DNA of 24,091 bases from a virus (taxonomy: Duplodnaviria; Caudoviricetes). The notes below the pieces were generated by a model. That model was not told the DNA's origin and ran no database searches. It worked only from the letters and a program-made list of their open reading frames with translations. The stretch spans positions 1-24,091 of the IMG/VR virus record IMGVR_UViG_3300025389_000119; one strand, written 5' to 3'. The position numbers and the translations under genes were made by a program. Within the stretch, counting starts at the first letter, position 1; each line of letters begins with the position of its first letter. Shown here piece by piece: positions 639-24,089 of the stretch.

Positions 639-835
639 TACCCGTTACCTGTACTGATCCATTGAAGGACATTTGCTGACAACGCGTTAGTAATTAACTG
701 TTGAGCATTGCTATCAAGTTGGACATGGTATAGCTTCAACTGATTAATAAAATAGTTTTGCTGCTCTTGGTTATATTCTCTATAAGGAACTTGTAAATTT
801 GGCCCTTTAGAAGGCACTAATACGTTAGTAGTCAT
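638..835 (-). CDS. Small hypothetical protein downstream of the nozzle gene
   Basis: 65 aa with TAATG coupling to both neighbours; PNL.VP..EY....Q segment followed by an amphipathic helix. Confidence 0.75.
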   Translation of the reverse strand: MTTNVLVPSKGPNLQVPYREYNQEQQNYFINQLKLYHVQLDSNAQQLITNALSANVLQWISTGNG

Positions 836-3414
836 TACCTTCTCCCATCTGGGCGTACGTCAAATCGCATCACACCCATCTGCCATGTTACTCCCGTTGC
901 GGTAGACTGTACTTTAAAATTCATCTGGCGACCGCGAATACGAGTATAAATTACGTTCGTAAATTGTTCCACGGGAGTAGTATTAGGTGGTAATGGCGCA
1001 GCTTGAGTATTAGACACTGTTGAATCTGCTACGTTGCCAATATCACCGCCTGTTAAATAAGCTGCACCGGGGCTATTTCGTGGGTTTAGTGTCAAATAGA
1101 TTTGTGGGGTAGCCGCCGTAGAACCTTGGAACGTAAAGTCTGGCAGGAACCTCCACACGTAACCGAAGTGATCACCTCCGTTAATATCAAAGTCAGAAGT
1201 CTGTAAATACGTAGTAATCGGGTTAGTGGCCCCGGCTACGTTAGATGACACATCATCAACGCCAATCTCATGGTTCAGTATTTGGTTATAGGTATAACTT
1301 TGCACCGCAGCATAAGCTGCATGACTTGCAGCCGTAGTACCATTAACCCCACGAGTACACCCAGTCAGGGACGTAGTAGTAACCCCAGTGTATGAGATTT
1401 GCTCTGAGTCAATTAATACTGTACCCGATGATGGGTAAGAGGATGCGTTAAGTAAAGATATAGAAGTTGCTGACGCGTTTATTGCAGCAGACAAATAAGA
1501 GTTCTGTACGCTATAAACTGCTAATGGGTATGTCTGTAATGAAGTCTGTAACCAAGCCGTACGATTCATCGTTCCGTAATACCATGTGGAATCTAAATAG
1601 TTATAGATAACATAGCTGTCATTGACAAGACTACTTGTTGACGGGTAGAACCACCAGATCTCGTTAAACTGTTCGTTTTGACCGCAAACGATTTGTTCGG
1701 CTTGCGATTGGTTAATGTTAGAGAATATATATTTACGAACAGAACAGGGTAACGGCACTACTGTGCCATTATAGAAATAAAACTTATCCGCACCCATCCA
1801 ATAAGTAGCCCCGTTAACCGAAATCATGGCATTGGAGGAAATGATAGAAATATTGTCCATCATTAAATGAAAGTTAAAAACGTATGGCGAACCCACGTAC
1901 TGCATTGAATACAGGGCACGGTCAGTCCAGATTAAATTCTCTTGCCGGGTGCTTAACCCACAAACAATATATGACCCTAGGGAGAGAGACTGTTCACCAG
2001 ACTGGTTATAGGTTGCAGGTGTCCATTCGTAAGGCAAAGATTGATCTGACCATCGTACAAGCATTGGGCTGAAGCTTTGTGCAAATGTGGCGGGGTTGTA
2101 GGGGGTAGACCCTAACGCGATAACAATTTGGTTTGTAGTCGAGACAATAACTGATCCTACTTCAGTCGGAGCTGTCTGCCCTGAATAGCTAAAAGATACT
2201 TGCTGCCCTGCGGTAAGAGTAACGGCATTCGTTACGGTTACGTTTACAGACCCAGTATAGTCTGGAGATTTAGACACATAAGTATTCGCAGGTACCCCAC
2301 TACCCGTGACCAATGCGCCATAATCAATACCCTGAGCATTAGCTACCACAAAAGTAGTACTAGAAGTAACTGCGTTAACAACCGTTTGTGTTGTCTTAAT
2401 TTTCTTAGACGGGGCAGTTGTGATCGTGGTATTTGTGCTACCCATAGGTAACGCGTCGGGATAAGTTGTATCAAATTCCCAATAATATAACCCGCCATTA
2501 TTCTGAGCAAAAACTAAGTTATCCCCAAAATTTGCTTGAGACCATAACCGCAAAGGGACGCTTGTAGGCGTAGCTGAACCCCATCCACCAGCACCCCAAG
2601 GTGAAGCACCCCATCCACCAGTACTACTACTAACTACTGCGTTACCCGCATTAAGATCATAAGTCGCCGTTACTGAACCACCACCTACCGTAGTAGAAGT
2701 CGCATTAGCAGATGCAAGGATTTGATACCCCGCAATAGAAAATTGAATGGTTCCCGCTATAGTCTGTGCCCCAGTCGTTGCATTAGCAAAAGATACAGAG
2801 GATGTGGTAGAGGCCGTAACGGTATACGTCCCGTTATACCCCGTTGGAGTAACACCCGAGATCGTTACCTTAGACCCAGCTGGAACTGCGAAAGCTTGTG
2901 CTGCAAAAGAAATAGTAGCTGTACCCGCTGCACCGCTTGCAGCTGTTGTAGCTAAAGTAGGCAATGTTGGATAGTTAATAATCTCATAAAGACCATTAAT
3001 GGTTACGCCACCAACAGTAGTTGACGAGAAATTTACAAATGTGCCTAATGTTATGGATGTACTATCAAGAACTGTTACTACCTTTGACCCAGAAGTCGTT
3101 GCAAATGGATTAGTAAGCGTCCCCGTCGTAGTGGGGGTAATATCGTTAAATGTGCCACCAGAACCACCAGCCTCAATGTAGTATTTTTGATTAGTCCCAA
3201 TAGCAATCAGGCTACAACCTGAACTAGTCTGCCAATACCACATAGTACGGGCTACGCCATTATAGCCTACGTCGAAAGCAGTCCAACCCCCGATCTTCTC
3301 AGGGTTGCCAGAACGAAACCGTATGTTATTAGAATCGTAATACCCGCCCGAACCCGCATAGTTCGTGACTTCGCGATTGATTCCCGGTTTAAATTCTATT
3401 TTGGTTATAGGCAC
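835..3414 (-). CDS. Tail nozzle / tail tubular protein B-like (P22 gp10 / T7 gp12 class) with inserted beta modules
   Basis: 859 aa. N-terminal KPGINRE...NIRFRSGNPEKIGGW, beta-propeller-like segments (LWSQANFGDNLV, LVRWSDQ, FNEIWWFYPS, WYYGTMNRTAW) and C-terminal RIRGRQ...RFDVRPDGRR. Position after the adaptors and fibres fits. Confidence 0.75.
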   Translation of the reverse strand: MPITKIEFKPGINREVTNYAGSGGYYDSNNIRFRSGNPEKIGGWTAFDVGYNGVARTMWYWQTSSGCSLIAIGTNQKYYIEAGGSGGTFNDITPTTTGTLTNPFATTSGSKVVTVLDSTSITLGTFVNFSSTTVGGVTINGLYEIINYPTLPTLATTAASGAAGTATISFAAQAFAVPAGSKVTISGVTPTGYNGTYTVTASTTSSVSFANATTGAQTIAGTIQFSIAGYQILASANATSTTVGGGSVTATYDLNAGNAVVSSSTGGWGASPWGAGGWGSATPTSVPLRLWSQANFGDNLVFAQNNGGLYYWEFDTTYPDALPMGSTNTTITTAPSKKIKTTQTVVNAVTSSTTFVVANAQGIDYGALVTGSGVPANTYVSKSPDYTGSVNVTVTNAVTLTAGQQVSFSYSGQTAPTEVGSVIVSTTNQIVIALGSTPYNPATFAQSFSPMLVRWSDQSLPYEWTPATYNQSGEQSLSLGSYIVCGLSTRQENLIWTDRALYSMQYVGSPYVFNFHLMMDNISIISSNAMISVNGATYWMGADKFYFYNGTVVPLPCSVRKYIFSNINQSQAEQIVCGQNEQFNEIWWFYPSTSSLVNDSYVIYNYLDSTWYYGTMNRTAWLQTSLQTYPLAVYSVQNSYLSAAINASATSISLLNASSYPSSGTVLIDSEQISYTGVTTTSLTGCTRGVNGTTAASHAAYAAVQSYTYNQILNHEIGVDDVSSNVAGATNPITTYLQTSDFDINGGDHFGYVWRFLPDFTFQGSTAATPQIYLTLNPRNSPGAAYLTGGDIGNVADSTVSNTQAAPLPPNTTPVEQFTNVIYTRIRGRQMNFKVQSTATGVTWQMGVMRFDVRPDGRR

Positions 3415-10403: not shown

Positions 10404-10700
10404 TTAATACTTGTTATCAGTCTTGATTGGACTACGGATATCGTCGTCAATAAAGAACTTCTTACCGCGTTGAGTATTACGGCAACCACGAATTTCTTCC
10501 CGGTTCTTCTTACGACCATAACCCTGTACATACCGACCATAAGTCTTAGTACCCGTACGATCGATTTCGCCAGCATCTGAGTCAGACTCATAGCCAGAGC
10601 TTTTGTCATAACGAAGATTCTTTTTGGGCTGAGTATATTTACCAATAGGATCTTTTTCATCCCACCCGTAATATTCAAAATCCCGCCATTTGTTAGTCAT
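10404..10700 (-). CDS. Hypothetical charged protein
   Basis: 98 aa, K/R/D-rich, TAATG-coupled to the upstream small ORF. Confidence 0.65.
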   Translation of the reverse strand: MTNKWRDFEYYGWDEKDPIGKYTQPKKNLRYDKSSGYESDSDAGEIDRTGTKTYGRYVQGYGRKKNREEIRGCRNTQRGKKFFIDDDIRSPIKTDNKY

Positions 10701-11975: not shown

Positions 11976-12503
11976 TTAGCAATTCCAAGCCCTGAGACTT
12001 TTGTTAATTCGACTGTTCGGGTCATTTGCGGTCTTCTTACTAGTCAACTTACGTTTCATACCTTTCATACGGGCACAGAACGAATCCCTACGCGATCCAC
12101 CTTGCGGTTGTGGAGCCTTTAGATGCGCCCCATGTGCACGGTTATATGAAGCCCTGCCTTTAGCATTTAGACCGCCTTTTGGGTTCTTACCCTCTTTACG
12201 AGTCCAAGCTTCAGTACTACCGCCTTCAGCCATTTTTGCTACAGCAGCATTATCAACAAGATTCGGATAAGGTCTACCAGCGGCCTTAGCACGAGCTTTA
12301 GCTGCTGACTTTTTATCCGGGCTAAGATGTTTAGTCTTGTGACCTTTAGGAGCATCTTTCTCCCAAAATGGTTTGTCAACTTTGCCACCTTTAGCCATGC
12401 CACCAGCACAATAAAGTTTCACGGGGACGTTAGCATCTTTCCGCTGTATCTTACGCGGAATTTTGTTTGGACTAACTGCTCCCATACCCCGTGAAGGCAT
12501 CAT
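11976..12503 (-). CDS. Basic multi-module protein; C-terminal SFCARM module (possibly DUF6321-like)
   Basis: 175 aa, K/R-rich. Three apparent modules (MMPSRGMGAV...; W...AKARAKAAGRPYPNLVDN; AWTRKEGKNPKGGLNAKGRASY...RRDSFCARM...LRAWNC) are separated by xxGG motifs. The family label is from memory and unverified. Confidence 0.75.
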   Translation of the reverse strand: MMPSRGMGAVSPNKIPRKIQRKDANVPVKLYCAGGMAKGGKVDKPFWEKDAPKGHKTKHLSPDKKSAAKARAKAAGRPYPNLVDNAAVAKMAEGGSTEAWTRKEGKNPKGGLNAKGRASYNRAHGAHLKAPQPQGGSRRDSFCARMKGMKRKLTSKKTANDPNSRINKSLRAWNC

Positions 12504-12506
12504 GAC

Positions 12507-12683
12507 TTATTTGCCGTGGTAATAGTGCCGAATATGCTCGTGATGGGGCTTATGGCTGTCCACATGCCCACCATGCTTGTGATGATGAACGTGGGGAGTC
12601 ATATGCTCCGGATGGTGCTTAGGCTCGTGATGCTGCGGATGCTTGACGTGACCGCCGTGAGCATGATGTTTAGCGTGATGCAT
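12507..12683 (-). CDS. Histidine-rich peptide (58 aa, 24 His)
   Basis: Start moved to the ATG at 12683 because AAGGAG lies just upstream (the track's TTG start overlaps that RBS). Sequence: MHHAKHHAHGGHVKHPQHHEPKHHPEHMTPHVHHHKHGGHVDSHKPHHEHIRHYYHGK. Confidence 0.8.
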   Translation of the reverse strand: MHHAKHHAHGGHVKHPQHHEPKHHPEHMTPHVHHHKHGGHVDSHKPHHEHIRHYYHGK

Positions 12684-12705
12684 TTTAGTCTCCTTCAAAA
12701 ATTAA

Positions 12706-14472
12706 TTAACGAATCTTACACTTAGTATGGCCCTTACTAGCAGCGCCATCGCCGCGACGTGAGGGATGAGATCCAACGTGACCGCCGGAAGCCATTTTAA
12801 CCTGTTTACCCTTGGTATGACCACGTAAAGCACGTTCATCAATACCTTTACGAACGTCGCCGCCCGAAGCCATATGGCCCTTATGATGCTGCTTGATATG
12901 GCCGCCCTTAGCATAATGGTGGTGGTGATGGATCTGATGAGCATGGTGCGCGTGATGCGTAACATGGCCACCTTTCTTCATACCCGGCATACCGCTTGGT
13001 GGTGCGCTTGGTGGTGCGCCCGGAGGGCCAGCCATACCCGGAACTGGAGGAGCTGAAGGAGGCATACCACCTAACATCTGTGCTGCGGCCAATGCCTTAC
13101 CGATACCGGGCTTCCTGATACCGCCACCACGACGCATGGCAAAACCCTTCGTATGCGTCTCATCTTTACCAGCATGAGCCTTGCTCACATGGCGACCGGG
13201 CTTGCTCTTGCCACCCATACCAAACCCTTTAAGCTTCGTATCGCCCTCAGAACTATGCTTGCCATGTGGTGCTTTGCGACCACTAGCAGACTCTTTCATC
13301 TTATAGCCTACAGGCTTAGTTTCGTCTTTAGGCACTTTAACTGACTTCATTTTTGGCTGGATCTTTCCGCCACGCTTGTAGCCCATTTCCTCATGTTCTG
13401 CTTTCTCATGTTCCAGAATCTTCTTAGGCGCATGACCGCGCTTCAGGGCTTTCATCTCTTCTCTAGCAATGGCTTTCGTTTCCTTAGCCTTACCATGTAG
13501 TTCATTTGCGTGTTTCACATTACCACCTTTCGCATATCTAGAAATTTTACCACCGTGCTTATGGCCAAAATTAGTTGGCGCAGCAGACATACCAGCACTA
13601 GGCATGCCCATACCTAGACTACCGCCATAACCAGCGCCCATACCGAAATTAGACATACCAGCACTAGATGGCGCACCAAGATAATTGCCACCTAATGCCT
13701 GTTGTGGTTGACCATGTAGAATATTAGATGTCATACCGCCCATACCATAATCAGGCATACCTATTTGTGGTATCGTTGATAAATCCCTTGATGCACCGGA
13801 ATACGCTCGAGGAGGAACCATTCCTTGGCCTTGGCCATACTGTAGTTGACCCGAGAAAGCGGGTGGGCGGCGCTGTGGGGGTGACAATGGGCTAATGCCT
13901 CCAAAATAATCCCCCCTAGGCATGTTAGGCACGTTTGGAATTGGCGAATAGTTAACCGGTGACTGTCCAACAGGAGTCATCGCACCCATAGGTTGATATG
14001 GTGATTGATTCATCATTGCTGGTGGCGGTTGAAACTTAGCTGGCATTTGTGTCGGTTGTACGGCTGTCGGTTGTACGGCCATCCCGGGAGCTGAACCTAA
14101 CATACCACCATCGGCATACTTCATCTTGCGTTTCACGTGACCACCTTGCTTAAATTTTGGTTTTGGATGTGCGACATCTGCCCAATAGCCTTCAGACTGT
14201 GCTTCTCTCTCGCTATCAGTCATACCCTTGGGGGATTTAGGTTGGACTTTAGGCGTTTTAGGAGGCGTATATTTGTCGTCCGGCACTAAAGAACCATCGG
14301 TGCCGTCATAATGTTTACGTTTCATGTGACCACCTTCTCTAAATTTTTTGCCTTTATCGGCATCATGAAAATGTTTTCCAACAGATATAGGGACTCCAGC
14401 CTTTTTCGCGAAGGATGGATTGTGAGCAACTGCTTCCATGAAACGATGTTGCTTTGAAGATTTACTGGGCAT
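12706..14472 (-). CDS. Large disordered K/H/G/M/P-rich protein with 12 xxGG motifs, putative internal virion protein or polyprotein
   Basis: 588-aa open frame in the operon direction, low complexity, repeated [FYMH]xxGGx[VIM] motifs. Confidence 0.8.
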   Translation of the reverse strand: MPSKSSKQHRFMEAVAHNPSFAKKAGVPISVGKHFHDADKGKKFREGGHMKRKHYDGTDGSLVPDDKYTPPKTPKVQPKSPKGMTDSEREAQSEGYWADVAHPKPKFKQGGHVKRKMKYADGGMLGSAPGMAVQPTAVQPTQMPAKFQPPPAMMNQSPYQPMGAMTPVGQSPVNYSPIPNVPNMPRGDYFGGISPLSPPQRRPPAFSGQLQYGQGQGMVPPRAYSGASRDLSTIPQIGMPDYGMGGMTSNILHGQPQQALGGNYLGAPSSAGMSNFGMGAGYGGSLGMGMPSAGMSAAPTNFGHKHGGKISRYAKGGNVKHANELHGKAKETKAIAREEMKALKRGHAPKKILEHEKAEHEEMGYKRGGKIQPKMKSVKVPKDETKPVGYKMKESASGRKAPHGKHSSEGDTKLKGFGMGGKSKPGRHVSKAHAGKDETHTKGFAMRRGGGIRKPGIGKALAAAQMLGGMPPSAPPVPGMAGPPGAPPSAPPSGMPGMKKGGHVTHHAHHAHQIHHHHHYAKGGHIKQHHKGHMASGGDVRKGIDERALRGHTKGKQVKMASGGHVGSHPSRRGDGAASKGHTKCKIR

Positions 14473-14803
14473 TTTTGCGTCTCAACCATTCCTTTCGCCA
14501 ATTACAATTTTTACAGAGAAGTTGAAATTTAGTTTTGTCTAGACCATGTTTTGCAAAGTATCCAATAATGTTTCTTATTTTGAATTTACGTCGATGTTCT
14601 GCACCATCGTCAGCAATATGATCAAAATCTAAAACTACCGAATCCAATTCACCACAAGAAAAACATTTACCGCCCAACTCTTCTATAAACTTTCTCCTAT
14701 TTGCAAATCTTAAATTACTTGAATATTTACGTTCTTTATCTTTGTTTTGTTTGTAATGCTGTCTTCTCCATAAGCGCCGTGCTTCTGGATCTTTATACGG
14801 CAT
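14462..14803 (-). CDS. HNH endonuclease, probable free-standing homing endonuclease
   Basis: LGGKCFSCG...VLDFDHIADDG...FQLLCKNCNW gives CxxC, DH and LCxNC motifs. Basic N-terminus, visibly AT-richer than its neighbours, and overlaps both flanking genes by 11 nt. Confidence 0.85.
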   Translation of the reverse strand: MPYKDPEARRLWRRQHYKQNKDKERKYSSNLRFANRRKFIEELGGKCFSCGELDSVVLDFDHIADDGAEHRRKFKIRNIIGYFAKHGLDKTKFQLLCKNCNWRKEWLRRKNAQ

Positions 14804-14984
14804 TACTCGTTTTCCGCTTAACTATAAAATTCTGTACCGTGTTGGACTCCCATATACGGATTATATACCAAAGTATAGTAAATACGCTTGCCGCCGCAGG
14901 TAGCCACTTCATTAGAGATCCAAAAGCAAATATTGCAGAGATAACATCTATTACGTGTTTGAAGATGTCATGGTTGTCTTTCAT
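14793..14984 (-). CDS. Small membrane protein, holin-like
   Basis: 63 aa with two short hydrophobic segments (VISAIFAFGSLM; WLPAAASVFTILWYIIRIW) and a basic C-terminus. Confidence 0.7.
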   Translation of the reverse strand: MKDNHDIFKHVIDVISAIFAFGSLMKWLPAAASVFTILWYIIRIWESNTVQNFIVKRKTSNAV

Positions 14985-14999
14985 GGCAACGGCTACCTA

Positions 15000-15200
15000 T
15001 TATTTGGAAGTAGAGGGTGGAGTGATGAACTTGCCGTTCTGATATAGCAGACCATAGTTTGCAGTCGGTGGGTTAGTATCTAAAACTGCCGTTAAAGGGT
15101 TGCCATCAGCATCATTACCCGGAGTCCATTCGGTTACTCCGTCCCATAAACACATATTGACGACGATATTAAGGTTGTTAATAACAACATACCTATTCAT
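15000..15200 (-). CDS. Small protein partnered with the Gly-rich fibre gene
   Basis: 66 aa; Y.VI....VVN...WDG..EW.P...G..Y..G.F..P pattern. TGATG coupling to the Gly-rich gene. Confidence 0.75.
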   Translation of the reverse strand: MNRYVVINNLNIVVNMCLWDGVTEWTPGNDADGNPLTAVLDTNPPTANYGLLYQNGKFITPPSTSK

Positions 15201-17386: not shown

Positions 17387-18289
17387 TTAGGCGCAACCAA
17401 ATACGCCGAGTGGATCCGACCAGCCGAAGCTATAACGCTCGCGGCTCTTGTAACGCACGTTACCCGTATCGAAATCACCGTCCATGCTGTTCTGCAAGGG
17501 GGTGCGCTCGAACATCTTCAAGCCATTCGGCACGTCTGTCAGGATATACCAACCGTGGGTATCCGTTAAGAAGTGGTTGACTTTGAAGCCTTCGCCAATG
17601 GTTCCCATCGACTTCAAGGCATTGATGTCGTTATCCGAAGTACCAACGCGAAGCTCAGTGTCAAGCAAGCGCTTGGCAACGAACATGTTGTTTGGTGGGA
17701 TAACCAATTTACGGGGCTTAGCAGCGATCAACAGGCCACGCTCGTCAGTCCAAGCAGCGATCTGAATCGTAGCGGCTTCCAATGAAGTCTCGTTAAGATC
17801 AGGGCTGGTTGAGAACGTGTTGCTGTTCGTGCCGCCGCTAACCAGCGGGTGGGCAGTGCTAAACAGGGATACGCCGTCACCACCAACATACGAGGCATTG
17901 AACCCGTTGTTAATGATAGCAGCCGCCTTGACTTGCTTCGTGTACGCCATCGCACGAGCCAACGCCTTTGTATAGCGCTTGCTGAGTGAGTCGTACAAGT
18001 TATCTTCAATCGCTTCCTCAGTGATCGAAAACCCGAGAGCAATCGTCTCGTGGTTATAACGAGCAGTCCACGCTTCTTGCGCGTTGTCATACGCAATAGC
18101 CTGACCTTCGTTCTTCACTGGGGCGGCGCTGAAGCCCGAAAGCTTCGTCTCTTCTTCAAAAGAACGCTCAGAGGTCTCGACCTCAAATAGTTCCTTATGT
18201 TCCTCACCATAAGAAGCATATTCCATGCCGAACAGTGCGTTCAGACCCGGGAGTAGTTCCTTAAGGAGTTGTGCTCTTGAAATTGCCAT
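17387..18289 (-). CDS. Major capsid protein (HK97 fold, Mu gpT-like family)
   Basis: 300 aa; MAISRAQLLKELLPGLNALFG.EY, ARYNHETIALGFSITEEAIEDNLY, KPRKLVIPP, DFDTGNVRYKSRERYSFGWSDP. Strong AGGAG RBS, C-ending codon bias and a following terminator. Confidence 0.9.
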   Translation of the reverse strand: MAISRAQLLKELLPGLNALFGMEYASYGEEHKELFEVETSERSFEEETKLSGFSAAPVKNEGQAIAYDNAQEAWTARYNHETIALGFSITEEAIEDNLYDSLSKRYTKALARAMAYTKQVKAAAIINNGFNASYVGGDGVSLFSTAHPLVSGGTNSNTFSTSPDLNETSLEAATIQIAAWTDERGLLIAAKPRKLVIPPNNMFVAKRLLDTELRVGTSDNDINALKSMGTIGEGFKVNHFLTDTHGWYILTDVPNGLKMFERTPLQNSMDGDFDTGNVRYKSRERYSFGWSDPLGVFGCA

Positions 18290-20595: not shown

Positions 20596-20979
20596 TTATG
20601 CACGGCCTACGCCGCGTGGGTCTTCAACAACACCTTCAACAGTGTCATCATTAATGATTCGCCATTCAGTGCCATGAATCTTTAGCCGGGTTCCGGAGTA
20701 CGCCCGAACTAAAACAAAGTCACCGACCTTGCACCAAGGCCCACTAGCAAACCGTTTCTTATCTTTGTAAGCATCTGGCCCTATCTTTGCTACAAACAAC
20801 ACGACCGTCGTTTGCTCTTCAACTCGTATGGATTCAGATGACTTAACAATCATACTGTCGCCGTACGTGTCTTCAATCTTAGGTACCATACACAACAACC
20901 GAAACCCGCTTGGTTCTGGAAGTTGTTTAGCTTTTCTATCTACTTCACTTAATGTTTCATCGACGTTGATATCACTCAT
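20596..20979 (-). CDS. groES: GroES-like co-chaperonin
   Basis: LPEPSGFRLL, V.KIGPDAY, KVGDFVLVRAYSGT.LKI.G.E.RIINDD.V.GVV match the Cpn10 signature. Confidence 0.85.
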   Translation of the reverse strand: MSDINVDETLSEVDRKAKQLPEPSGFRLLCMVPKIEDTYGDSMIVKSSESIRVEEQTTVVLFVAKIGPDAYKDKKRFASGPWCKVGDFVLVRAYSGTRLKIHGTEWRIINDDTVEGVVEDPRGVGRA

Positions 20980-21169
20980 TATCGTCCTCTAGGTTTTTTG
21001 CAAGGTCTTCTATTAATTGCTTTGCGGCGTCGAGTCCTTGAATAACGCCGGTCAGTCTTCGATACTCATCGAAAGTAGTTACATGCCCACGAGTAATAGC
21101 CCTCGTAGTTGAATCAATCGCTTCGTCAATTTTGCGAGTTAAATACTCGGCGGCAGTATCTGTCTTCAT
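20972..21169 (-). CDS. Small helical protein following the portal
   Basis: 65 aa; G.V..FDEYR.L.G.IQGL helical hairpin. ATGA overlap with the portal stop. Confidence 0.8.
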   Translation of the reverse strand: MKTDTAAEYLTRKIDEAIDSTTRAITRGHVTTFDEYRRLTGVIQGLDAAKQLIEDLAKNLEDDNE

Positions 21170-23988
21170 TCAATACTTCCCTCATCTGCTACATCAGGTT
21201 GCTGGGCTTGTTCAGCCTGTTGCGCCATCTGGTCTTTATCCAGTTGGTGTTGTGCACGTTTGTGGGCTACATCTACTCCCACGTTTACCGCGTCAAGGTG
21301 GTGTTTAGATACATCAAGCTGATGTTGTTTATGCTTAAGTGCATCTTGAACCCCTGCCTGTGTTGAATCAGCCATTTGCTGGTTGTGTTCACTATCTTGT
21401 TGGTCAACAGATTTAGCCATATCCGTAACGTGCTTAACCTTATCCATTAAATGCTTATGCTGTTGTGCATTGTGATCATGGTCTTGCTTATCAGACTTAG
21501 TGGCCATATCAACCAACTGAGCAGCACGTTTGTGTTGGATGTCCGCGCCTAACTTAGCTCCTTCAAGCTGAGTCATAGCCGCAAGTTCCTGCTGTTTGAA
21601 CTTAAGTTCTTCAGCCTTAGCCGCTGCGTCCATAAGGTCTTTCTTAGCCTTACGTGCTTGTTCAGCCTGTGCAATCTGACTCTCAACCTGTGCTTGTTGC
21701 GCTTGGACTTGGGCTTGCTGTTGAGCAAGTTGAAGCTGCTGCTGTTTAATCTGCAACTCTTGCTGCTGCATCTGAATAAGCGGATCTTGTGCTTGTTGTT
21801 GGGCCTGTTGTTGCTGATGTGCTTGTTGATTCTGCTGAAGTACCCGTTGCCCTGCTTGAGCAAGTAACGGAGACAACTGTGCCTCAATGGGCGGCGGTAA
21901 ATACCCAGTCGTATCGTCATCATCATTATTCCCAGCCAGTACCGATGCGGGAGGTGGTGGTAATGTAACTCCAAGACTCTGTTCAATCTGTGTACGGTAT
22001 TCCATCGCAGCATGTTCCATTAAGTGCGCATTGAGCGCCGCTGTAATAGCCTGTGCTTGTGGATTCTGACCTAATGTCTGTGCGAGTTTAGGATCTTGTA
22101 ATAGTGCAGAGTGAACCGCGATATGTGACGCATGATCTTGATACAAGAACGCTCTAACAGGTTTACCCACCATGAGCGCCATGTTTTCAGACACAGGATC
22201 AACCGGTTGAAGGTCATCATTCATTGGGATAAGTTTCTGAGCATTCTTAATCCCAATCGTCTCAATCATTTGCCTATGGAGATAAGGGAGGTTATAGATT
22301 TGAGGCGCTGTCTGAGCAAGTTGTAGAACCGCCTGATACTGAACAACCCTTTGGGCCATTGTGCTGGCGTTAGGATCAGACACAGGTAGAACGTCAACGT
22401 TATCGTAATCAGCGCGCTTAGCAGAAGGATTTCCAGTCTCTGGCTCATAGTCATAACTCTCCGGAGTATTGTCCCTAATAATCGCAGCAAGAAGTTTAAA
22501 CTCTTGCTTCATTGTGTAATGGATACGCGCTTGAATAGCGCCCATAACCTTCAATGCCCGTTCAAGAACGGCTAACGTAGTTCCTACTGGAGCATTAGAA
22601 GACATATCTGAAACGCTAAGATCACCAGATCCAGCGAAACGACGGCCATCTTCGATGACTTGGTTCATCAAAGCCATTAGAACCTGACTTGGCTCCTTGT
22701 ACGGGAGTGGCAGGATGTTGTCCCTAATGGCTCCGCTACCAACGTCTACATCTCTAAATTCACCCGGCGCGATAGGCGTATCATCTCCCTTAATCCGTAG
22801 TCCTTTAGACTTAAGCCCACCCGGTAAATTACTGAGTGTACCCGCATCGATAAGTTGTCTAAGAATCGAGGTTGCGGCTTTGGTGTGTCCACCAATAAGA
22901 TGGATAAGTCCAAAGTAGTAGAAGCCAAATCCGGGGATGTATCCGTAGTGGACAAAGTGTTGTCTACGGATTTTGAGCGGGTCTTCTTCGAGCCAGTTGC
23001 GGCGGATCGCGAGGATCGTACTGGTACCTTTTTCGATGGTAACGACGTACGGGAGTTCAATGCCGGTTTCTTCGCCATGTTTGTTTGTGTCCTCATATCC
23101 GGGTAAATTTAAATTGACATGCATCTCAAGAATCTGGAAGCGATCATCCATCGACGCTGAGAAGCCCTGTTGCTCAGCCTTTCGTTTCTCAACCTCATCC
23201 ATAACGCGAACTGGGTCGCCAAGATCAACATCACGGTAGAACCCCGCAACCTGAAGTTTACGTAACTCATTTTTAGTTTTCCGCATACGATGGGTAATAC
23301 GTTCAGCGGTTTCAATATTTGCTGCACCATAGGGAACAATTACATCTTCTGCGGAAATGAATGGAGCTACTTGACGGTTATAAGATGGGTCAAAGTAAAT
23401 CTTCTTAAATGCGTTACCTGATAAAGCTACGGAAAGCAGTAAGCGTTCATGTTCTGGACGATACTCCAACATGATGTTGGTAAGCTCATTATTCATGTCG
23501 GCTTCGACACGTGCTGCGGCTTGAATCTTTTCTGGGGTCTCTTTACCAATGATTTCAGTACGGACTGGGCCAGCCGAAGGGAACGTCTCCATAATAGTTT
23601 CAGATTGAAACTTAACTGCTGACTCCATCAACAATGGGTGATACACACCACAAGCACCGGGCCAAGGCTCTGAGCGATCCTCGTACTTAAGTCCTAAGAG
23701 TTGTAAGCCTTTAACATAAGTATCTAACCAATCTTTGCGTGAAGCGATATCTTCTTCAAGGTCACCTAATAACTCATAGGCTAAAGAGAGCAGCTGGTTC
23801 TCAGGCATATCGTCAGCAAGGTTCGCATCAAAGTCAGGCTCCACATGCTCCATGTGCATCTCAAAACCCGGGCCAGAGATATGAAGTTCTTCTGGGTCTA
23901 CAATCTCAACTTGAAGCGCTGGTTCACTACCGTCGTCAAGAGAACCTAACCCCTGTGGGGCTTCATACAATGATTTATCTACACTCAT
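21166..23988 (-). CDS. Portal protein (P22-like) with a long Q/H-rich C-terminal extension
   Basis: 940 aa; SRKDW...Y.KGL.LLG, PWPGACGVYHPL..E..VKFQ, G.AFKK.Y.D, RQLIDAGTLSNLPGGLK, PLPYKEPS, APVGTT.A.LE, DVLPVSDPN. Upstream of the scaffold and capsid genes. Confidence 0.9.
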   Translation of the reverse strand: MSVDKSLYEAPQGLGSLDDGSEPALQVEIVDPEELHISGPGFEMHMEHVEPDFDANLADDMPENQLLSLAYELLGDLEEDIASRKDWLDTYVKGLQLLGLKYEDRSEPWPGACGVYHPLLMESAVKFQSETIMETFPSAGPVRTEIIGKETPEKIQAAARVEADMNNELTNIMLEYRPEHERLLLSVALSGNAFKKIYFDPSYNRQVAPFISAEDVIVPYGAANIETAERITHRMRKTKNELRKLQVAGFYRDVDLGDPVRVMDEVEKRKAEQQGFSASMDDRFQILEMHVNLNLPGYEDTNKHGEETGIELPYVVTIEKGTSTILAIRRNWLEEDPLKIRRQHFVHYGYIPGFGFYYFGLIHLIGGHTKAATSILRQLIDAGTLSNLPGGLKSKGLRIKGDDTPIAPGEFRDVDVGSGAIRDNILPLPYKEPSQVLMALMNQVIEDGRRFAGSGDLSVSDMSSNAPVGTTLAVLERALKVMGAIQARIHYTMKQEFKLLAAIIRDNTPESYDYEPETGNPSAKRADYDNVDVLPVSDPNASTMAQRVVQYQAVLQLAQTAPQIYNLPYLHRQMIETIGIKNAQKLIPMNDDLQPVDPVSENMALMVGKPVRAFLYQDHASHIAVHSALLQDPKLAQTLGQNPQAQAITAALNAHLMEHAAMEYRTQIEQSLGVTLPPPPASVLAGNNDDDDTTGYLPPPIEAQLSPLLAQAGQRVLQQNQQAHQQQQAQQQAQDPLIQMQQQELQIKQQQLQLAQQQAQVQAQQAQVESQIAQAEQARKAKKDLMDAAAKAEELKFKQQELAAMTQLEGAKLGADIQHKRAAQLVDMATKSDKQDHDHNAQQHKHLMDKVKHVTDMAKSVDQQDSEHNQQMADSTQAGVQDALKHKQHQLDVSKHHLDAVNVGVDVAHKRAQHQLDKDQMAQQAEQAQQPDVADEGSIE

Positions 23989-24089
23989 AAAATTTTCCTG
24001 TCGCGAGTCGTGCGCTCAATAAGGCCACCTGCTTTAAAAAAAGGATTGTTCATCCTAGTAGCAGGATCAGGCATAGCCATCGGTGAGGG
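23985..24089 (-). CDS. 3' end of the gene upstream of the portal (partial)
   Basis: Open frame ...PSPMAMPDPATRMNNPFFKAGGLIERTTRDRKIL* whose TGA overlaps the portal ATG (ATGA). Contains an FKAGGLI motif. Confidence 0.65.
   Translation of the reverse strand, partial: PSPMAMPDPATRMNNPFFKAGGLIERTTRDRKIL

Follow-up and report, generated by a model that had tools for sequence, protein, structure and literature searches.

A conserved diglycine motif in head-accessory and predicted ejection proteins of HTVC023P-type podophages and its co-occurrence with a C-terminal ejection-protein module

The IMG/VR virus record IMGVR_UViG_3300025389_000119 (Duplodnaviria; Caudoviricetes), analysed here as one window comprising the whole record of 24,091 nucleotides (about 38% complete), is a fragment of a short-tailed phage, or podophage, of the HTVC023P type. 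Three basic, low-complexity proteins encoded in the window (pI 9.6-10.7) carry a recurring diglycine motif, [FYMH]xxGGx[VIM] in its strict form and [FYMH]xxGG in its looser core, and this motif is real, conserved and broader than the initial annotation, made from the sequence alone, had recognized. In relatives of the phage the motif co-occurs with a C-terminal module of about 60 amino acids (aa) in the first ejection protein. We consider the chances about even that the motif is a multivalent tag through which the procapsid of HTVC023P-type phages is loaded with internal cargo, comprising ejection proteins and small basic proteins.

All 17 motif copies listed in the initial annotation were located in the sequence. 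Twelve of them had been assigned to a 588-aa open reading frame (ORF), where ten fit the strict pattern but YADGGML and FGMGGKS do not. Composition-matched shuffling places the motif far above chance in this ORF, with 10 strict copies against a mean of 0.30 in 10,000 shuffles (maximum 4) and 13 core copies against 2.45, and the bare GG pair is not enriched (18 against 13.9, p=0.13). Both copies listed for a His-rich 63-aa ORF are strict (2/2; 0.02 expected), and the three listed for a 175-aa ORF stand as core copies (p=0.0004), but only one of them is strict. The other 30 of the 33 window genes tested yielded one strict match in total, located in the nozzle, and an additional copy, FKAGGLI, is found in a cut-off ORF before the portal gene. 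The glycine codons vary as had been claimed (GGT 20, GGC 14, GGA 1 and GGG 1 in 18 core copies) and the DNA of the copies differs, which supports selection at the level of the peptide. The spacers had been described as unrelated; this does not hold for all of them, since the last two units of the 588-aa protein share R-x-[DE]-x-x-A-x-[RK]-G-x-T-K. Among 77 tails taken from related proteins, too, many have a C-terminal module of similar kind after their last motif. Conservation is evident in 44 homologues of the 588-aa protein, which together hold 230 copies against 8.0 in shuffled sequences, and in which the motifs are kept while the spacers vary in length, charge and content.

The assignment to the HTVC023P type is given by capsid homology and core gene order. 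The window capsid is 70% identical to that of Pag-Yong1/MinM2, 62% to that of Pelagibacter phage HTVC023P and about 44% to that of Caulobacter RW, with values of 60-70% for HTVC023P, DSL-LC04 and Pag-Yong1 taken together. The order portal, GroES, scaffold (a label given from position and sequence character), 155-aa protein, 299-aa protein, capsid, adaptors and nozzle is common to the window and the relatives examined. The initial annotation had spoken of P22-like phages; the phage is of the HTVC023P type, with a layout of portal and ejection genes that is P22-like. The window's own ejection genes would sit past its left end.

In 80 capsid-anchored loci the motif occurs in 210 copies on the capsid strand versus 13 on the opposite strand, the majority in small basic ORFs located between the capsid and adaptor genes, and in complete relatives it is also carried by genes that follow the nozzle or precede the portal. 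Genes of the relatives were called with our own codon-score script. RW was read over 47 of 62 kb, CRP-901 over 48 of 53 kb and QDWS535 over 50.0 of 50.1 kb; the genome counts do not include the partial G003-G005, and G006, G008, G009, G012, G014, G017, G019, G022, G023 and G031-G035 entered the module search only. The genes after the nozzle were designated ejection genes from their position, from 'DNA ejection protein' phrog_4287 in the block and from SLT and LPD38 domains. In the 16 genomes bearing the module, the head-accessory zone holds 57 copies versus 2.1 in shuffled sequences and the ejection region 37 versus 5.3, the tail 2 versus 3.5 and the core 5 versus 2.8; the zone of other genes (17 versus 3.1) contains terminase look-alikes and pre-portal genes. 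In the eight genomes without the module every zone is at chance level. The initial annotation had proposed either a docking tag or a cleavage site, and the docking half gains support from this marking of head-accessory and ejection proteins with tail and core at chance. The motif is confined to accessory head-region and ejection-region genes, whose products would be internal to judge from gene position, the neighbouring phrog_4287 and SLT/LPD38.

A further 80 loci were anchored on the first ejection gene. Here the motif is found in 79/81 first proteins, a circular figure as the first protein is itself the anchor, in 21/24 third proteins and in 28/67 members of a mixed cluster of second and third proteins, and in 0/72 nozzles and 0/55 members of the small family that follows the first ejection gene. 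The contexts of the motif are acidic (YSDGG, FDDGG and FAEGG in ejection proteins) as well as basic. Tandem copies 8-11 residues apart account for 18 of 87 spacings, a distance that suits avidity. Copies starting in the first 8 residues are few (5/241), the majority being internal or C-terminal. Two candidates were rejected as motif copies: the C-terminal RFRQGG of terminase is a look-alike, the same helix end reading RFRQGN, RYRQGS or RLRKGW in other lineages, and GY[TS]AGG of a tail protein of about 140 aa occurs in motif-less genomes too. The second ejection proteins at L126:10683-13127, L167:10716-13598 and L157:10686-12275 start with a short leader (KLFADGGV or RKEGGRIVY) followed by a GGGGS run, an arrangement reminiscent of P22 gp7 with its processed leader.

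At its C-terminal end the first ejection protein has one or two motifs, then GxG-SD-IPA-L-DGEFV and then a helix. This unannotated unit of about 60 aa, for which the name GEFV module is our own, contains an invariant Asp and an invariant Glu, and no Pfam family matched it. Its profile matches the tape-measure proteins of solved siphophages, namely 8zdo of a mycobacteriophage (E 1.6e-19) and 8rk3 of JBD30 (E 2.4e-6), as well as many tape-measure PHROGs, and at E<=0.001 it retrieves 13,140 cluster representatives. The arrangement of Phi-x-x-GG (Phi, hydrophobic) followed by GxG-SD-IPA-L-DGEFV, which characterizes the tape-measure family, is present in the first ejection protein of the relatives; the three window proteins have the motif alone, and the module gene would sit outside the window. 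An AlphaFold2 model of the module from a shallow alignment reached a mean pLDDT of 52 and a pTM of 0.24 and was not used, and a predicted complex between the module (residues 26-106) and the C-terminal 38 residues of the 588-aa protein scored 0.00, which gives no answer either way. Some variants of the module were observed. A second GEFV module resides on a 1279-aa protein in G002 (L090:4930-8769), whose gene runs opposite to the structural operon, and an ejection-region protein of MW202545 (L552:12617-14536) has two in tandem, the second without its N-terminal half. By eye, the module with which the small proteins end (GG...R-A-D-G-I-A or G-x-G-x-A) is like the first half of the motif-GEFV unit.

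Motif and module are found together. Seventeen of 27 genomes have the module with motif copies, and the remaining ten, without it, have none or one. The main set comprises 24 genomes, of which the 16 with the module each match the pattern 2-12 times, whereas the eight without it (CRP-901, six of its kin and Alcaligenes phage QDWS535) have 0-1 matches, at or below chance, and keep portal, GroES, scaffold and capsid in all cases and the 155-aa protein in seven. Among more distant phages, MW202545, read over 50 of 57 kb, carries the module along with 12 copies where 0.6 would be expected, some of them together on one 449-aa basic protein, and MW202796 and MW202785 have no module and 0 and 1 copies, respectively. 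Small basic motif proteins are also missing from the lineages without the module. The initial annotation had named capsid, scaffold, portal and the 155-aa protein as candidate partners of the motif. As these and GroES are kept in motif-less relatives, nothing singles them out as its reader and none is favoured as the specific partner; the GEFV module of the ejection protein tracks the motif instead. The 155-aa protein belongs to no named Atlas family.

Motif and module are both present in HTVC023P, DSL-LC04, Pag-Yong1/MinM2 and RW, and the GenBank records of HTVC023P-type relatives name neither. The window phage differs from most of these relatives in its unusually long protein with 13 copies, where the others have 1-4 copies spread over several ORFs of 60-300 aa. 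The likeness extends to siphophage tape measures (lambda gpH, JBD30 8rk3 and mycobacteriophage 8zdo), in which Phi-x-x-GG, in two copies in 8zdo, precedes the module. The tape measures hold one or two such units in a tail that assembles separately from the head, whereas in this phage group the motif is also free on many small proteins. In lambda gpH, FATGG at 733-737 and YATGG at 778 are placed around RGEFV (hhalign E 5e-4, probability 30%); since a local search with a deeper GEFV profile was not significant (E 64), lambda would be a distant case of the family. A published description gives both the enzyme that cuts gpH and its cut site as unidentified, equates gpH* with approximately residues 1-710 and leaves residues ~690-817 unresolved (PMC12617516). 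A fragment starting at 715 would have a mass of 14.3 kDa and one starting at 738 a mass of 12.2 kDa, to be compared with the reported ~14 kDa. These gel estimates softly suggest a cut about 20 residues upstream of FATGG, with both motifs inside the released fragment.

The crAss001 cargo protein C1 (gp45; PF25725, PDB 7qog) is a proven virion cargo with repeated GG sites. In its published description residues 425-552 are modelled bound to the portal wing and residues 214-245 in the tail (PMC10172136). The portal-bound domain starts with AFGG (residues 425-428), contains GEVV and holds two more GG. As the modelled domain begins at AFGG, that copy appears uncut, and the GG bonds of the portal domain appear intact in the virion. 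The pattern A[FY]GG, picked after being seen, occurs 4 times in gp45 versus 0.10 in shuffled sequences, and in the Atlas the nearest named family to the GEFV module is the crAss cargo domain (score 0.83). Along gp45 (L104:1987-4515) short basic modules between the GG sites are by eye like the small basic proteins, as if fused in one chain.

Two established systems invite comparison. The T4 capsid-targeting sequence is a single N-terminal leader which directs internal proteins into the prohead and is removed by gp21. It resembles the motif in being a short peptide on small basic proteins, but the motif is internal, repeated and common to ejection and tape-measure proteins, the few copies near an N-terminus do not make a leader, and no prohead protease was found among the proteins searched in two complete relatives. 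The adenain consensus is (M/I/L)xGG-X, with the hydrophobic residue at P4. Sites of the adenovirus protease and of pS273R of African swine fever virus (ASFV) share with the motif a hydrophobic residue before GG in basic core proteins, but they read Phi-x-GG, whereas in Phi-x-x-GG the hydrophobic residue three positions before GG is P5, with K or A as the usual residue two before GG. Of the marks of diglycine processing by CE-clan enzymes, neither a virus-encoded protease, among the proteins searched in the window and two complete relatives, nor the P4 consensus was found. The motif would act like a capsid-targeting sequence, but is not a leader of the T4 kind and departs from the adenovirus and ASFV sites in both protease and spacing.

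A loading tag is the most economical explanation of a motif that is confined to proteins likely to be internal cargo, stands between basic as well as acidic flanks, is present in tandem and tracks the module of the first ejection protein. Such a tag would gather ejection proteins and small basic proteins into the procapsid. The GEFV module may anchor the first ejection protein at the portal vertex, and the motif may be a strand bound by this module, both within one chain (in cis) and between chains (in trans). Proteins with many copies, such as the 588-aa protein, could then be flexible cross-linkers drawing basic, DNA-neutralising segments into the core, and the basic motif proteins would enter the head and neutralise DNA. 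Several observations weigh against a loading tag. The presence of the motif proteins in the virion is itself a prediction. The motif-GEFV unit is also found in siphophage tape measures, whose assembly takes place in the tail at a distance from the portal, and portal anchoring can therefore not be the general role of the unit. The ten module-less genomes represent only about four lineages, and the independent events are few (2-3 label changes on the capsid tree and three further lineages). Seven of the 16 positive genomes were chosen via the module, and the ejection-zone counts take in copies adjoining it. RW has its copies mainly around the module and few elsewhere, and G018 has the module but its two matches are look-alikes, the real copies adjoining the module. 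The largest ejection protein is mostly without the motif (2/14 and 1/25) and must load otherwise. In gp45 [FY]xxGG is found 3 times versus 0.93 in shuffled sequences (p=0.07), and with no Pfam match between the GEFV module and PF25725 and hhalign E values of 0.13 and 0.63 the link to gp45 is a lead only, homology not being established.

A wider proposition is that Phi-x-x-GG and GEFV make up an undescribed peptide-reader pair reaching from the lambda tape measure to the ejection proteins of very abundant aquatic podophages, perhaps also to crAss cargo, with a multivalent network that loads ejectable cargo and a module that may position or catalyse the lambda gpH cut. We offer this tentatively, as possible but on the unlikely side.

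The other half of the initial proposal, cleavage, has to be weighed against the loading tag. The motif would then be a protease site, cut after or near GG in head maturation by a host enzyme or by the GEFV module, thereby freeing small basic peptides and trimming ejection proteins. We regard this as rather unlikely, if well short of negligible. Conserved modules bounded by motifs and shuffled between them are polyprotein-like, and in 16/154 small proteins no more than 2-5 residues remain after the last GG, much as a few residues follow the terminal GG of ubiquitin-like precursors. An unidentified protease cuts lambda gpH in the neighbourhood of its motif and module, and the tail-bound segment 214-245 of gp45 is situated between GG sites at 209 and 263. 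Against cleavage, the gpH cut is estimated near 710 rather than 737, and the GG-containing start of the gp45 portal domain is modelled intact. Cuts 8-11 residues apart would also give trivial products. No CE-clan or Ulp1 Pfam family is present in 29 window proteins, in agreement with the initial statement that no protease was recognized there, and neither these nor a prohead protease were found by Pfam in 110 proteins of two complete relatives (68 of G025 and 42 of G001, short ORFs and G001 core genes excluded). The only peptidases in this set are a tail-fibre S74, an M15 endolysin and one early-region M20/M28. No gene family separates motif-positive from motif-negative genomes, save the motif-bearing proteins and ejection-region or accessory genes, and across 18 sequences of the 155-aa protein no Cys, His or Ser is invariant. 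Processing of the adenovirus or ASFV kind is weakened both by this lack of a protease family and by the P5 position, but cleavage by a host or unrecognised protease, or by the module itself via its invariant Asp and Glu, is possible. Virion proteomics of the HTVC023P-type group was not found in the literature searched.

A further alternative, which we consider improbable, makes the motif an element of a basic repeat (K-K-G-G, RGG-like) with which DNA-condensing core proteins bind nucleic acid, and takes the copy at GEFV for a structural turn without recognition. The high pI of the window proteins would suit such a repeat, as would K as the commonest residue at -5, -4, -2 and -1 in small basic ORFs, a set selected for basic proteins, but the persistent positions are hydrophobic -3 and +3, ejection proteins hold acidic copies, and small basic motif proteins are missing where the module is missing. 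Distinctly improbable, too, is a handle for an assembly chaperone or a post-ejection host envelope factor, common to proteins threaded out of the virion, with mimicry of the GroES mobile loop (T-K-G-G-I-I-L) as a special case. Tape measures and ejection proteins share the unit and both travel unfolded, and the phages encode GroES, several with TKGGIIL loops. Motif-less genomes have GroES too, however, the window's clade is motif-rich though GG is lost from its own GroES loop, and GroES is without the hydrophobic -3 residue. That the motif is an artefact of chance or composition in Gly-rich low-complexity sequence is virtually excluded by the shuffles of the 588-aa protein and its homologues and by the strand bias of the capsid-anchored loci, even with bare GG not enriched and look-alikes such as terminase RFRQGG and GYTAGG of the tail protein occurring in folded proteins.

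How short-tailed phages choose the proteins that are carried in the head and ejected is a largely open question on which the motif bears. A seven-residue tag together with a 60-aa module in ejection proteins and tape measures can be tested directly by mutation and proteomics in phages that are in culture. It also provides a means of predicting which unannotated genes encode internal cargo, and it links the ejection machineries of podophages and siphophages. The group concerned is large, as an estimated ~13,000 stored IMG/VR stretches fit its capsid patterns. No description of the motif was found in the full-text literature searched, a coverage outside which most subscription papers fall, and the motif is unmentioned in the available parts of PMC5512222, PMC11972413, bioRxiv 10.64898/2026.02.24.707460, PMC6235969 and PMC11288001. 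The motif of tape measures may already be familiar to specialists.

Table 1. Motif-bearing proteins and context genes of the window
Feature	Position	Strand	Remark
588-aa basic (pI 10.2) low-complexity protein	12706..14472	-	10 strict/13 core copies
Motif copy FREGGHM, aa 44-50	14323..14343	-	GG invariant in 7/7 aligned proteins
Last motif copy MASGGHV, aa 560-566	12775..12795	-	Conserved C-terminal module comes next
63-aa His-rich protein, 24 His	12507..12698	-	2 strict copies at 12645-12665 and 12561-12581
175-aa basic protein	11976..12503	-	3 core copies; last (MAEGG) directly before DUF6321 domain (PF19846, E 3e-22)
Cut-off ORF upstream of portal, ends in FKAGGLI	23985..24089	-	Pre-portal genes of several relatives likewise motif-bearing
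98-aa basic protein without motif	10404..10700	-	GxRxxxRGKK stretch like post-motif module by eye only
Major capsid protein	17387..18289	-	Context; assigns phage to HTVC023P type
Portal protein	21166..23988	-	phrog_1216, E 1e-30; candidate anchor for cargo
Nozzle/stabilisation protein	835..3414	-	Context; in relatives motif-bearing ejection genes come after nozzle

The 588-aa protein (Table 1) is built from a conserved N-terminal MPSKS module, a variable Pro/Gly/Met-rich insert and a C-terminal RxDG..KG.T module, and its N-terminal 41-46 aa match phrog_16759 and the 'virion structural protein' families phrog_22033 and phrog_25121. A His-rich homologue of the 63-aa protein adjoins the homologue of the 588-aa protein in L002 also, and with 24 of 63 residues being His, metal binding by the window protein is possible. 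A PDB search with the 175-aa protein gave 0 matches.

Directly upstream of the 588-aa ORF and overlapping its start is an HNH/endonuclease VII-like gene (14462-14803, minus strand), which is possibly a mobile homing endonuclease; GC content is lower across 14001-15000, the region of this gene. The portal protein has 940 aa and a long Gln-/His-rich C-terminal extension, compared with ~780-830 aa in relatives. GroES (20596-20979, minus strand) has a mobile loop without GGI in the window's clade, and HTVC023P-like members retain TKGGIIL. Finally, the records OL906435 (L083, L084), OQ594354 and PP438419 name different cyanobacteria as hosts, yet have the same length of 65,014 and identical match scores; their host assignment deserves a check.

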